A stretch of 25,679 bases of DNA from Candidatus Aenigmatarchaeota archaeon (GTDB lineage: Archaea; Aenigmatarchaeota; Aenigmatarchaeia; GW2011-AR5; JAGGXF01): the NCBI GenBank assembly GCA_029932645.1, contig JAOZPR010000009.1:1-25679 (forward strand), read 5' to 3'. Below, piece by piece: positions 21,001 through 24,000 of the stretch. How positions within the stretch are numbered: position 1 is the first letter of the stretch; each line of letters begins with the position of its first letter. The position numbers are program-made.

Positions 21001-24000
21001 TGCCTGAAAACCTTCCAGAACAAGTATAATAAACTGCTGCTGTCCTTTCCGCCGGACAAGGCGATGCATATCTTATCATTTTTCTTAATCAAGTGGTTTT
21101 TACCAGTTGTCTTCTTGAAACTTTTTTCTATCTGCTTGCTAAGGCAGTGGTCGCAATAGTATCTGCCCTCATACCTTCTCAGTAATATGGCTGGTCTTCC
21201 ACACGCACATTTTTTAGTCAAGTCTCTCACCAGATTAGTTCAATCACCAGAAACAATGATTATGATCTCCAGCTTGTCTTTCGTTCCGACATATTCCTCT
21301 TCTGTTACTATTTTTCCATTCAACTTACAGACGACATTCTCCCGATTAAGGCCGAGCTTTTTGAGTATTTTTAATATCTTTTCTTTCCGATTTAGTTTCA
21401 GTTTTTCAGTCTTTTTGCCTATTTTGACTGTTAGAAGCATAGCAATCACTCTTAAAACACTTTTAAAAATTAGTGGATAAATCTTTTTAAGTGTCGTGCG
21501 CCGAGATGACAGAGTCAGGTCAAAACGATATTAAAAACGAGATTAAATGTGCTCGCCTCGAGAGCGAGTGAGCCTTGTGCTCGCGCAGGTTCAAATCCTG
21601 CTCTCGGCGTATTTTAGGCTTTCTGCACCTTGCAGTCTAAGACTTTTAAATCTTTCACAACACATAATTTCTTTGTGCTGGGATAGCCAAGTCACTGGCC
21701 TTTCTCTTTGCAAAGAGAACGCCTTTTTGGCAAACTTAGGTGTGCTCTCGCAAATATTATTAGGAAAGGCTGCTTGAAAGGTTCACGGCGCTGGCCTTGA
21801 GTTTCAATGATGACACGGCTTGACTCTGATTTCGGCGGAGATGACGAGTTACTTAGTTCAGAGAAATGAGAAAGCCAGTGTGCCATGTTCGTACAAAAAC
21901 GGTGGAAGCACGCGGGGGTTCGAATCCCTCTCCCAGCGTTTTCCTGCAACAACGCATTACGTCAACGCATTACGTGCGTAATGTCCCTATTTTTCTGTGT
22001 TTTGAAACAAACCAAAAGCTTTATAAGTACGCCTAAAGTAAAAAATTAATTAGTGTAATCTTCAAAGGAGGTTTAGAGATGTCGTTTCAATTGCAGCTAG
22101 TATCATCGTTGGTTGACATAGGCAACATGTTCATAAACTTCATACCCAGCCTAATAGGTGCGTTGATAATAGCATTGATCGGTTTGTTCATCGGAAAGTT
22201 GCTAGGAAAAGCAGTGAAACACATATTAGAGAAAGCAAGACTTGACTACTATATATCTGAAACAGAAAAACCGACAGTGAGCCTAACTGACATATTCTCG
22301 CTGATCACCAGATGGTGGATTTATTTAATCTTCTTGACACAGGCCATCAATATTCTGGGACTTAACATACTAGTAACCACAATGGGCAGAATCAACGAGT
22401 TTATACCTAGTGTAATAGGTGCAACATTGATATTGGTCGTCGGTTATGTAGTAGCAGAGTACATAAAAGAACAGATAAAGAAGCATAAGACAATATACGC
22501 CAGTATCGTAGGAAAGATGATATTCTTCTTTATCATGCTGGTGACAATCGCTTTGGCTTTACCAGTGTTAGGAATATCTGCAGGGCTACTCAACAACATA
22601 TTAGTGTTACTAGTCGCTTCAGTGGCTATAGGAATTGCAATAGCTTTAGGCTTGGGTCTGAAAGATGCAGTATCAGAGATTTCCAAGGCTTATGTCAAAA
22701 AGTACAAAGTTAAGTAAGACTAGGGCTGTTTCAGAGGCCCTTTTTCTTTTAATTTTAAATCTTTTTCTTTTTGATAATTCATAGAGATGCGATGGTAGTC
22801 TAGAAACCTTTTTCCAGCTTCGCTGCAAAAGCGTTTACGGAAAAGGTTGGATAATCTGGTAGGACACTACCCTGCCACGGTAGCGACCCGGGTTCAAATC
22901 CCGGCCATCGCATTGGCGTTTTCTAAATCTATTTAAGTTTTCCCTGAAAACTATAGTTAGTGATGATATGTTTTTTGAAAAAAAGAGAGATGTTGACATA
23001 CAAGAGCTCAAAAGAGCTATAGATGAAGACAAGACCTTCCGTGCCACCCCAGCTGAGAAACCAGTTTCAATGCCCGAGACCACTATGCCTTTGGACACAT
23101 TTACTGAGCCTGTTCAGAAACCAGCAAGGCCGCCAGCAGAACAGCCAGCAAAACCGATAGCACCAAAGACAGCTATGCGAACCATGAGAGATGCAAAACC
23201 ATCTGCACCGCTATTTGTCAAGGTGGATAAATACAGGGAGGCCTTGATGAACCTGCAGGAGATTAAATCTTTACTATCCGGCACAAAGCAGCTGTTCACC
23301 ATACTCAATGACATAGAAACAATCCGAACAGAGACTCTGAAATTGTTGCGGGCAACACTTCAGCGGACTGAGCGCAACGTTGTCGAGCTCGATTCAGGTT
23401 TATTGAGACCGTCAAATCTTCCGGAAATGCCCAGCTCAGAACATGCTATCAAAACAGCGCATACAGAAGAGGCTTTGTCAGACCTTCAAGAGCAGGTAAA
23501 TTCTTTGAAGAAAGAGCTCAAAAAGTTCGAGTAAGTCTTAGAAAGTTTTTAAATATTTCCCCTTCTGTTTATTTCAATAAGTGCAGAGGTAGCCAAGTCT
23601 GGTCAAAGGCGTAGGACTCAAGTAAACTTTTAGAAAAAGTTTAATCAAAATATTACTTGAGTTTTGAGTTTTGCACCGCAAAACCATGATAAGAGAAATC
23701 CTATCCATTAGTTGGTTCGTCGGTTCGAATCCGGCCCTCTGCATGATTTTTATTCTTTCCGCCAGATATTATTCATTACCCCGATGATGACGTTTGGCAT
23801 GATTTCATGTCACGGGCGGGCTGAGGGGTTTCTATGCTCAATTAATCTTATACCTTAGAAAAGCAGCAAAGCCGCCCATACTGAGAAGTCTTTTGCCTGA
23901 CTCATGCTCTGTAGATATGATTTTAACCAGAGCGCCCATTTGCTCTGCTTTTTTCATTACTTCCTCATTGTCCCTAACCATTGTGTCGCTTATCAGTAGC

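Follow-up and report, generated by a model that had tools for sequence, protein, structure and literature searches.

A probable sR13-type box C/D guide RNA hosted by the anticodon-loop intron of tRNA-Ser(UGA) in an aenigmatarchaeote, with a predicted target in the ribosomal decoding site

The 71-nt intron in the anticodon loop of a tRNA-Ser(UGA) gene from a Candidatus Aenigmatarchaeota archaeon is, with an estimated probability of about 0.8, a box C/D guide RNA of the Nanoarchaeum equitans sR13 type that uses the tRNA gene as its host, and its D' guide is predicted to direct methylation of 16S rRNA A1408 in trans. The basis of this reading is the anatomy of the element, its conservation, covariation both between guide and target and between boxes, homology to sR13, and the presence of processing and RNP genes. 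The source genome (G000; assembly GCA_029932645.1) is a 0.7-Mb genome represented by a 718-kb assembly that is 89% complete, and coordinates refer to the window, a 25,679-nt stretch of contig JAOZPR010000009.1. Other genomes are denoted by G numbers (G001 being of the same genus as G000 and G002 of the same family) and families by f numbers.

Anatomy of the intron and its host gene

The host gene occupies 21677–21938 (262 nt, forward strand), where the acceptor, anticodon and T arms can be identified in the sequence. The acceptor stem is GCUGGGA/UCCCAGC and the anticodon stem CUGGC/GCCAG, closing a loop (C32 U33 U34 G35 A36 G37, the intron, A38) in which the anticodon UGA lies at 21798–21800. 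ARAGORN with introns allowed places a tRNA at 21676–21939 but miscalls it. The orthologous gene of G001 is 141 nt long; relative to it, the G000 gene has 36 additional nucleotides at the anticodon intron and a D-loop intron of about 85 nt (21695–21779, forward strand, ends approximate), which is missing from the G001 gene while the exons otherwise align. Of the three introns given in the initial annotation, the anticodon-loop and D-loop introns are thus borne out, the latter by the comparison with G001, and the intron of the variable arm is deduced from length only.

The intron between G37 and A38 spans 21802–21872 on the forward strand, and a string match at 21802 reproduces both the sequence and the 71-nt length originally reported. 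All elements of a full box C/D layout could be located within it, in the order UUUC-A-AUGAUGA(C)-CACGGCUUGACU-CUGA(D')-UUUCGGCGGAG-AUGACGA(C')-GUUACUUAGUU-CAGA(D)-GAAA-UGAGAA. The terminal stem is formed by UUUC (21802–21805) and its complement GAAA (21863–21866); the corresponding stems of relatives differ in sequence but retain complementarity over 3–8 bp. The C box (AUGAUGA, 21807–21813) matches the consensus exactly and is followed by the 12-nt D' guide CACGGCUUGACU (21814–21825), part of which (GGCUUGAC) is the complement of 16S 1405–1412. The D' box (CUGA, 21826–21829) is likewise exact; CUGA is found in 45/57 family members and the remainder retain the final GA. The 11-nt D'–C' loop UUUCGGCGGAG (21830–21840) contains a CGGCGG motif that recurs in relatives, with GGCGG present in six of the nine tRNA-hosted copies of the order, GCGGCG in a seventh (G007), and GGCGG again in f9, f11, f14, f34, f38 and f39. 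The C' box had initially been placed at AGAUGA (21839–21844). Either placement gives one deviation from the consensus, but alignment with the AUGAUGA and AUGAAGA boxes of relatives moves it two bases downstream to AUGACGA (21841–21847). The 11-nt D guide GUUACUUAGUU (21848–21858) is similar to its counterparts in f11 and f14, and the D box (CAGA, 21859–21862) retains its GA and has at position 1 a C that pairs with the G at position 6 of the C box.

This last pair belongs to a covariation of C-box position 6 with D-box position 1 that is seen family-wide: among 49 parsed elements the combination is A:U in 26, U:A in five and G:C in four, with two more G:C cases having been misparsed. The equivalent pair between C' position 6 and D' position 1 is G:C in 44/49. 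The spacers of 12 nt (C to D') and 11 nt (C' to D) agree with the approximately 12 nt of archaeal box C/D sRNAs, and the 12-nt C–D' spacing also occurs in the nine tRNA-hosted copies of the order, which were found without the phylum-wide search pattern; that pattern presets this distance at 12 nt and its matches cannot test it. The intron therefore combines the features of an archaeal box C/D sRNA, namely C and D boxes next to a terminal stem, D' and C' boxes, appropriate spacers and a guide with an N+5 target, the last having been assessed on the 16S genes of relatives.

The intron tail UGAGAA (21867–21872) completes a bulge–helix–bulge (BHB) motif by supplying one strand of the central helix and the 3' bulge. 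As read from the sequence, the 4-bp helix CUUG/UGAG consists of C32:G, U33:A and the two G.U pairs U34.G and G35.U, and is flanked by two bulges of 3 nt (AG/U and AA/A, the slash marking the intron boundary), the arrangement characteristic of archaeal BHB introns. Since the outer helix is only 2 bp long in this register, the motif is a relaxed one; a register corresponding to the earlier scores H4 and h'2 can be drawn. Genes for both the splicing endonuclease and RtcB were found in G000.

A strict scan for the C/D layout across the 718-kb assembly returned this intron alone and found no match in ten shuffled genomes. The earlier description of the intron as the only box C/D candidate in the genome holds at this level, for full two-box layouts, and does not extend beyond it. 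Rfam at gathering thresholds gives no match in the intron; below threshold, the forward-strand matches that span most of it are to archaeal C/D families only (sR5, 11.6 bits; sR2, 11.2 bits).

Predicted pairing with the 16S decoding site

The D' guide is predicted to target 16S rRNA 1405–1414 (GUCAAGCCAU, E. coli numbering), an assignment supported by the three relatives (G002, G006 and G007) in which the intron element occurs together with a 16S gene. Their guide, CAUGGCUUGACU, forms 10/10 Watson–Crick pairs with 16S 1405–1414, and in the combined 16S and 23S loci of each genome there is a single such site, always CGUCAAGCCAU at the decoding site and always in the register N+2 to N+11, which would place the methyl group at A1408 by the N+5 rule. 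Watson–Crick runs were used exclusively because scoring that tolerates G.U pairs is uninformative, 456 of 500 shuffled guides reaching a nine-pair run. With the stricter scoring, 27, 38 and 16 of 2000 shuffled guides reached ten pairs anywhere in the 16S/23S loci of G002, G006 and G007, respectively. A 10-bp match is by itself therefore an event of about 1–2% per genome, and it is the register, the covariation and the homology that jointly make the case.

The 16S and 23S genes are missing from the G000 assembly, and its own target site is taken to be that of the 16S genes of G001 and G002, which read GUCAAGCCAUC. The G000 guide has C in place of U at N+10, leaving eight contiguous pairs (1405–1412) plus one more, compared with ten pairs in most relatives. 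The target that had been anticipated from the guide, AGUC-A-AGCC, corresponds to C-GUCAAGCC-AU of 16S rRNA, on the 5' strand of helix 44 in the decoding site, with A1408 at N+5. The previous search had found no target because the rRNA genes are missing from the assembly; moreover, the base at N+1 never pairs, so that a search for an exact 12-mer had to fail. Contigs of four DNA runs compared with the 16S 3' domain of G001 yielded many short 16S fragments from mixed organisms, none assignable to G000.

In the 31 genomes having the guide plus their own 16S gene, the pairing from N+2 to N+9 is perfect in 22, includes one G.U pair in seven and one mismatch in two. Changes on the two sides correspond: the three genomes with the 16S sequence GUCAAGUC have the guide GACUUGAC or GAUUUGAC, whereas the other 28/28 keep G at that guide position, and the guide GGUUUGAC is found in three of the four genomes with the 16S sequence GUCAAACC. 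The base at N+1 is unpaired in 31/31 pairs, and N+2 to N+6, around the target nucleotide, are invariant.

The sR13-type guide would act as follows. The pre-tRNA would be transcribed and cut by the splicing endonuclease at the BHB, the outer helix of which would double as the C/D terminal stem. The 71-nt intron would be released and probably circularised by RtcB, and would form an RNP with L7Ae, Nop5 and fibrillarin at its C/D kink-turn and C'/D' kink-loop. Pairing in trans between the D' guide and the helix 44 5' strand would then allow fibrillarin to methylate the ribose of A1408, which faces the guide base five positions upstream of D'; the paired RNA would also keep the decoding-site strand single-stranded and may time when helix 44 folds. 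In the G000 organism, release of the intron as a stable and perhaps circular RNA, formation of the RNP and methylation are thus all predicted events. A look-up of RNA runs for positions 21400–22100 listed none that contains the locus.

The location in a 37/38 BHB intron is also that of the euryarchaeal pre-tRNA-Trp box C/D intron, the methylation sites of which are C34 and U39, and the element could by analogy act in cis on its own pre-tRNA. The D' guide does match the host D arm AGCCAAGUCA in part, with seven Watson–Crick pairs and one G.U pair, but N+3 is mismatched here and the methyl group would fall on A13, and there is no match of the D' guide to the anticodon arm. The D arms of tRNA-Ser in G002, G009 and G015 differ while the guide is unchanged; this lack of conservation of the host match contradicts a cis-acting role, which appears very improbable.

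A different question is whether the RNP modifies its target or mainly occupies it. It could serve as an antisense clamp or timer that holds 1405–1414, and perhaps CCGCC through the CGGCGG loop, so that helix 44 forms late, with methylation incidental or absent. A role in delaying folding is proposed for N. equitans sR13 in PMC5389701, and chaperone roles have been proposed for other N. equitans sRNAs (PMC4644070). The G000 guide is intact although the fibrillarin frame is broken, and the forms hosted by 16S introns carry the guide in cis, 90–180 nt from the target. There is also no match to RsmA/Dim1 at E <= 1e-10 in G000 and its family, the best weak match in G000 being PCMT, as in N. equitans. 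RsmA and the guide do not, however, track one another: f2 has both (RsmA in 30/44 genomes) and G001 has neither at E <= 1e-10, so that loss of RsmA/Dim1 shows no clean correlation that would make it the reason for the guide. Against a clamp, the D' box lies at a constant distance from the duplex, with pairing starting at N+2 in 31/31 cases although the N+1 base varies, and all variation in the guide falls at N+7 to N+9, away from N+5, as a methylation ruler predicts. In addition, Am1408 is chemically present in N. equitans 16S rRNA, where according to PMC5389701 it was detected by MALDI-MS and assigned to pairing of the sR13 D' box with 1405–1415. A clamp without a main role in methylation is accordingly judged possible but rather unlikely.

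The CGGCGG loop itself has an ambiguous partner because three 16S sites are complementary to it, the 530-loop CCGCCGC and the 5' end CCGCCG as well as 1399–1403; only the GGGCGG or GGGCGA of the forms found in 16S introns is specific for 1399–1404. For the D guide GUUACUUAGUU, neither the G001 rRNAs nor the tRNAs of the window offer a convincing site. Two candidates, one of 6 bp at the pre-tRNA-Leu(CAA) junction and one of 9/11 in the host D arm, were rejected, both having mismatches next to N+5. The D guide of the G000 copy is probably idle. Separately, the D guide of G007 has a 9-bp match in its own 23S rRNA that is not common to other genomes.

Of the RNP genes that the initial annotation listed as encoded, those for Nop5 and L7Ae are intact in G000, but compared with G001 and G002 a T run in the fibrillarin gene has a 1-nt deletion that splits the reading frame, which reflects either a mistake in the assembly or genuine loss of the methylase. 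If the methylase were indeed broken and the D guide dead, the element could be a relic in G000 that persists only because the intron must still be spliced. The frameshifted fibrillarin gene, the orphan D guide and the reduction of the intron to 35 nt in the sister species G001 are compatible with such decay. A single-base indel in a T run is nevertheless a common error of metagenome assembly, the adjoining Nop5 gene is intact, and the element retains all four boxes, its 12-nt spacing and its guide core intact and identical to those of distant relatives, making a relic improbable.

Distribution and hosts within the phylum

The exact 13-mer of guide plus D' box is found in 10/70 genomes of the order, compared with two matches for a reversed control, and the C-box/guide/D' pattern is found in 70/371 genomes of the phylum, compared with three control matches. 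Several matches were discarded: recurrent one-mismatch matches of the 13-mer outside the 16S gene (GGCTTGACTATGA, ..ACCCTGA and ..GATTCTGA, the five in G001 and the one at G018:C40) all lie in sequence that reads as coding, and the phylum-pattern matches in G026, G044, G056, G011, G251, G275 and G296 lie in open frames and are not elements. Inspection covered the phylum-pattern matches except G280 and the second matches in G149, G163 and G197.

Throughout the phylum, a member of DPANN, the guide always lies within an intron. The tRNA-Ser(UGA) intron hosts it in 39 genomes from 13 families, so that the earlier report of the element in three families was correct as to its presence but understated its extent, and elsewhere the hosts are introns of the 16S gene. 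In the order of G000, 34 genomes have a 16S 3' domain, and in 28 of these the guide lies in a 16S intron, in the h43 loop or at about position 1500; another 23 genomes in f23 and f24 have the guide in 16S introns at four other places. More than one host was seen in no genome read. The 37/38 intron of G001 is, as previously stated, a 35-nt sequence without boxes, and the guide was not detected in G001, G008 or G018 (87–91% complete), even though all three retain intact fibrillarin, Nop5 and L7Ae, indicating that the guide is dispensable.

The CUUGA of the tRNA-Ser(UGA) anticodon loop is identical to the guide core and therefore complementary to 16S UCAAG. This likeness could have steered intron transfer and may explain why tRNA-Ser(UGA) is a recurrent host. 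A tentative model, which seems to us a real possibility though short of probable, is that the sR13-type guide is cargo moving with or between BHB introns, each genome having one copy, either in the tRNA-Ser(UGA) intron or at one of at least six intron sites of the 16S 3' minor domain, with the guide-like loop of tRNA-Ser(UGA) steering its transfer. The rRNA-hosted form would then be a self-removing checkpoint for folding of the decoding site, and the tRNA-hosted form would couple small-subunit maturation to tRNA processing. The occurrence of one guide either in a tRNA intron or in the introns of the 16S gene that it targets provides a natural test of the movement of guides and BHB introns, and the phylum likewise offers a test of whether placement in cis or in trans matters for ribosome assembly. 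The sole full box C/D layout found in the 89%-complete assembly of this 0.7-Mb genome is predicted to aim at A1408. More generally, no DPANN genome should be called guide-less until its tRNA and rRNA introns have been searched for guide RNAs.

Comparison with known guide RNAs

As judged from sequence, the intron element is a homologue of N. equitans sR13 (Randau 2012, PMC3491384; Dennis 2015, PMC4644070; Seistrup 2017, PMC5389701). The sR13 entry reads ..GGCUUGACU-CUGA-UUAG-UGAUGA-.. (supplement file 1, row 259, PMC4644070), and the two RNAs have an identical D' guide core, GGCUUGACU, with CUGA immediately after it. Both have the two-box archaeal layout with 12-nt spacers and a D' guide that is predicted to pair with 16S 1405–1415 and to target A1408; the predicted sR13 target is given as A1395 of N. 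equitans 16S rRNA, and A/G1395 is equated with E. coli A1408 in the main text of PMC4644070. The predicted target in G000 fits the idea raised for Nanoarchaeum that small-subunit maturation in reduced archaea has the A1408 interaction as a core step. The two RNAs differ in the remainder of the molecule. The D guide of sR13, GGAGGUGA, faces the anti-Shine–Dalgarno end of 16S rRNA, and the same module is the D guide in f21, f23, f24, G025 and G028, whereas the G000 D guide GUUACUUAGUU has no match to this 3' end (1531–1540). G000 also has CAGA as its D box and an 11-nt D'–C' loop with CGGCGG, compared with 4 nt in sR13. Finally, sR13 is listed as a separate gene and the G000 RNA is the anticodon-loop intron of tRNA-Ser(UGA); among the tRNA introns of N. 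equitans, only that of tRNA-Met (66 nt) is long enough for such an RNA.

The guides hosted by 16S introns share the guide and an NNGA box with the G000 element but lie in cis, inside the RNA that they target. In the order of G000 they differ further in having a 15–18-nt C–D spacer closed by an inner stem and an additional antisense element, GGGCGG, against 1399–1404. Eukaryotic intron-encoded snoRNAs offer a more distant parallel, as rRNA methylation guides that lie in the introns of translation genes and are made by processing of the host transcript. Their hosts are spliceosomal introns trimmed by exonucleases, in contrast to the BHB intron, tRNA splicing endonuclease and tRNA host of the G000 element.

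The closest precedent for the host is the euryarchaeal pre-tRNA-Trp intron, a box C/D RNA (Clouet d'Orval 2001, as cited in PMC7994747 and PMC6009581) that is a whole C/D guide contained in a BHB intron of the anticodon loop and freed by the splicing endonuclease. The tRNA-Trp introns occur as circles (PMC12558985). The tRNA-Trp intron is described as acting in cis, methylating the tRNA that carries it, while the G000 intron has no conserved host match and a predicted 16S target in trans. A literature search, with most subscription journals lying outside its scope, found no rRNA-targeting guide in a tRNA intron and no C/D RNA hosted by an rRNA intron. The new part is the tRNA-Ser host of a guide predicted to act on rRNA in trans, which gives an archaeal tRNA intron a predicted job unrelated to its tRNA: the only well-studied tRNA-intron guide, that of tRNA-Trp, modifies its own tRNA, whereas introns of the type described here appear to aim instead at the decoding site of the ribosome.

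The intron of tRNA-Ser(UGA) and its box C/D layout

Contig C10, which the window spans, belongs to an archaeal assembly of 718 kb in 43 contigs, with approximately 40% G+C and numerous tRNA genes with introns. Reading of the sequence places the tRNA-Ser(UGA) gene at 21677–21938 (262 nt; acceptor stem GCUGGGA/UCCCAGC, anticodon stem CUGGC/GCCAG, loop CUUGAG|A) and its anticodon-loop intron at 21802–21872 (71 nt), between G37 and A38. The intron reads UUUC-A-AUGAUGA-CACGGCUUGACU-CUGA-UUUCGGCGGAG-AUGACGA-GUUACUUAGUU-CAGA-GAAA-UGAGAA, with, in order, the first strand of the terminal stem, the C box, a guide of 12 nt, the D' box, a loop, the C' box, a second guide of 11 nt, the D box and the closing strand of the terminal stem. 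Anticodon and terminal stems both form in the predicted fold (MFE −28.8 kcal/mol, z = −2.47), and a relaxed bulge-helix-bulge (BHB) motif can be drawn at the intron junctions, with bulges of AG|U and AA|A on either side of a central helix of 4 bp (CUUG/UGAG). The D'–C' loop carries a conserved CGGCGG that is complementary to three 16S sites.

The initial annotation assigned three introns to this gene. Two of these, the anticodon-loop intron and an 85-nt D-loop intron, are upheld by comparison with the orthologue in a relative of the same genus (G001), which is 141 nt long with an anticodon intron of 35 nt rather than 71 nt; the 262 nt of the gene studied here equal these 141 nt plus 36 nt in the anticodon intron and 85 nt in the D loop. 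For the variable arm, length alone suggests a third, short intron. The gene belongs to a cluster of four tRNA genes in the window, including those at 21499–21610, which carries an intron and is labelled Asn(AUU) by ARAGORN, probably a miscall, and at 22844–22912. Positions 23582–23744 read as a tRNA-Leu(CAA) gene interrupted by a long intron.

Sequence reading bears out the claim that the intron has a full box C/D layout, and a whole-assembly scan bears out, for full two-box layouts, the claim that it is the sole candidate: the strict two-box layout matches this intron alone, with no match in ten shuffled genomes. A relaxed layout gives five matches versus 0–5 in the shuffles, and the four others look like chance. 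Elements with the 12-nt layout were parsed from all fetched loci, giving 57 distinct elements in one parse and 56 in a second, of which 49 parsed in full and seven did not; in the second parse a few D boxes were chosen wrongly. Under the kink-turn pairing scheme, position 6 of the C box and position 1 of the D box are A:U in 26, U:A in five and G:C in four of the 49 parsed elements, with two more G:C cases (AUGAGGA with CCGA, in G009 and G015) misparsed; the pair in the genome under study (G000) is G:C (AUGAUGA with CAGA). Position 6 of C' and position 1 of D' form G:C in 44 of the 49. The terminal stems of the family are 3–8 bp long and widely divergent in sequence, and the GA dinucleotide is retained in all four boxes. 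Such box covariation, stems and GA dinucleotides are the features that would be expected for a C/D kink-turn and a C'/D' kink-loop.

The predicted target in the 16S decoding site

Ten genomes among the 70 in the order contain the 13-mer GGCUUGACUCUGA, compared with two matches for a reversed control. In three of the ten (G027, G040 and G014) the 13-mer lies inside a 16S rRNA gene, where the adjoining 16S reads CACACCGCCCGUCAAGCCAUC; GUCAAGCCAU, at 16S 1405–1414 (E. coli numbering), is exactly complementary to AUGGCUUGAC. Searches of the G000 assembly for the 16S decoding-site sequence and for 23S gave no match, in agreement with the earlier statement that its rRNA genes are missing. The tRNA-Ser element and a 16S gene occur together in three relatives, G002 (of the same family), G006 and G007. 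Their guide, CAUGGCUUGACU, finds a single 10/10 Watson–Crick site across the 16S and 23S loci, which is always 16S 1405–1414 in the register N+2 to N+11, counting guide bases upstream of the D' box. Shuffled guides formed ten pairs anywhere in these loci in 27, 38 and 16 per 2000 trials, respectively, and this result alone is modest support for the target. A1408 pairs with the fifth guide base counting upstream from D', and N+1, opposite C1404, is never paired. The 16S of G001 and G002 reads GUCAAGCCAUC; the G000 guide has C at N+10 and would therefore form eight contiguous pairs plus one.

The 16S decoding region is present in 34 of the 70 genomes. The guide lies inside the 16S gene itself in 28 of these (26 by scan, G040 and G012 by reading of the loci) and in the tRNA-Ser intron in three (G002, G006 and G007); no copy was found in the remaining three (G001, G008 and G018). 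Over the core N+2 to N+9, 22 of the 31 guide–target pairs are perfect, seven contain one G·U and two contain one mismatch (G059 and G031). Where the 16S reads GUCAAGUC, in three genomes from two genera (G010, G042 and G020), the guides read GACUUGAC or GAUUUGAC, and the G at the changed guide position is kept by all 28 other genomes. Where it reads GUCAAACC, in four genomes, three have the guide GGUUUGAC. Variation in guide and target is confined to N+7 to N+9, and N+2 to N+6, which flank the predicted methylation site, are invariant. This covariation is the strongest evidence in the analysis that the guide would pair with this 16S stretch in vivo. The earlier observation is confirmed and its interpretation as a box C/D guide is supported; the conserved target, which the initial annotation had not named, is identified as the 16S decoding site, with A1408 as the predicted nucleotide.

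Hosts of the guide and exchange of the D half

Within the order the guide occupies three types of host: the tRNA-Ser(UGA) 37/38 intron of nine genomes (G000, G002, G006, G007, G013, G009, G015, G025 and G028; families f1 and f5–f8), an intron in the 16S helix 43 loop and a 16S intron at about position 1500. Short site-1 introns of 45–80 nt without the guide persist in genomes that carry it elsewhere, and no genome read had copies in two hosts. Across the phylum, the pattern UGAnnA-nnn-GGCUUGAC-nnnGA matches 70 of 371 genomes, compared with three matches for a control. All of the 70 except G280 were read. The host is the tRNA-Ser(UGA) intron in 39 genomes from 13 families (f1, f5–f9, f11, f14, f21, f23, f34, f38 and f39), a wider distribution than the three families first noted. 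In 23 genomes of f23 and f24 the guide lies in 16S introns at four further places (after AAGUCG(U/C), after GGGGCUAA, inside helix 45 and after CGGGAAC). Matches in open frames in seven genomes (G026, G044, G056, G011, G251, G275 and G296) were rejected.

The 16S genes in the order (loci L038 and L040–L072) are densely packed with small introns in their 3' portion, where these occupy the h43 loop, a site after GGGCUAA, another at about 1500, and h45. Introns of ∼575 nt after AAGUCGUA in the 16S of G021, G036 and G062 start with an open frame (ATGAATGA.., read at the DNA level), which we take to be a LAGLIDADG-type homing endonuclease. The host anticodon loop CUUGA (21796–21801) is the same as the guide core cUUGAc (21817–21824), so that both are complementary to 16S UCAAG (1406–1410), within which UCA is a serine codon. 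This identity may be a coincidence or may be one reason that tRNA-Ser(UGA) is the recurrent host.

The D' guide is constant across the family and the D guide is exchanged between lineages as modules. That of f9 (L117–L122) is GUGAUAGGCGGA followed by AUGA and pairs with 16S 1399–1408, placing N+5 on C1402, the ribose of which is presumably methylated in E. coli and yeast. It is also methylated in Nanoarchaeum equitans, according to the available text of PMC5389701. Families f21, f23 and f24 (L125–L158) and G028 and G025 (L101 and L102) carry a GGAGGUGA-type D guide followed by UUGA or CUGA against the 16S 3' end (anti-Shine–Dalgarno), with N+5 on C1535 by our count (A1534 in N. equitans). The G000 D guide is similar to those of f11 and f14, and no convincing target was found for it. 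The D guide of the G007 intron (UUUCAUGUUAA) has a 9-bp Watson–Crick match in its own 23S (L114, reverse strand, position about 2811) that is not common to other genomes.

Machinery, losses and relation to known guides

Following transcription of the pre-tRNA-Ser, the splicing endonuclease (contig C27, 32771–33043) would cut at the BHB, and RtcB (C9, 195–1496) would join the exons and probably circularize the intron. Circularization is described for tRNA-Trp introns in the available parts of PMC7994747 and PMC12558985. L7Ae (C9, 37567–37845), Nop5 (C27, 7373–7984) and the adjacent fibrillarin (C27, 6696–7339, minus strand) would bind both box pairs, and the D' guide would pair with 16S 1405–1412/1414, leading to methylation of A1408. 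All three proteins had been listed as encoded, which holds for the intact L7Ae and Nop5 genes; compared with G001 and G002, the fibrillarin gene lacks one nucleotide of a T run (ATGTTT-TGAAG), which splits the frame, such that the N-terminal part stops at ..NAKMF* and the remainder lies in another frame. The deletion is either an assembly error or a real lesion.

The three proteins are intact in G001, G008 and G018, in which no guide copy was found outside open frames, so that the guide is not essential; the loss proposed for the same-genus relative, G001, with its 35-nt intron, is thereby corroborated. The 16S of G018 (L049) has its target altered to GUCACGCC and its intron at about 1500 holds only a degenerate guide remnant (aaUGACUUGAUUAU), with no other copy found; it looks as if guide and constraint decayed together. 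RsmA/Dim1 (PF00398, E ≤ 1e-10) had no match in f1 (G000, G001 and G002), f3, f5, f7 or f8, and near full-length matches occur in 30 of 44 f2 genomes and in G007. The best weak match in G000 (C28, 7710–8399) scores 222.9 bits as PCMT, a protein-isoaspartate methyltransferase. The available text of PMC5389701 gives RsmA as absent from N. equitans as well.

The N. equitans box C/D sRNA sR13 is listed as a C box followed by ..GGUGGCUUGACU-CUGA-UUAG-UGAUGA-GAGGAGGUGAUA-CUGA (Dennis et al., 2015, PMC4644070, supplement file 1, row 259), with 16S A1395 in the authors' alignment as predicted target, which is E. coli A1408 according to the main text. The accessible portion of Seistrup et al. (2017, PMC5389701) reports, from MALDI-MS, 2'-O-methylations in 16S rRNA helices 44 and 45 of N. 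equitans, attributes Am1408 to the sR13 D' box, pairing with 1405–1415, and Am1534 to its D box, and proposes that sR13 delays folding of the helix 44/45 region in an organism without RsmA/Dim1. The D' guide core and D' box of sR13 recur in the G000 intron, which is therefore assigned to the sR13 guide family by its D' half, whereas the D half is not alike. A literature search, with most subscription journals outside its reach, found no paper on the tRNA-Ser-intron or 16S-intron form. Both guide and target are already known from N. equitans, and a C/D guide in a tRNA intron is already known from tRNA-Trp; however, the latter acts on its own tRNA, as described in the available text, whereas the tRNA-Ser(UGA) guide is predicted to act on rRNA in trans. 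What appears to be new is the combination, a putative trans-acting rRNA guide carried by a tRNA-Ser(UGA) intron, in a form that is conserved in 13 families and swaps places with introns of its target 16S gene.
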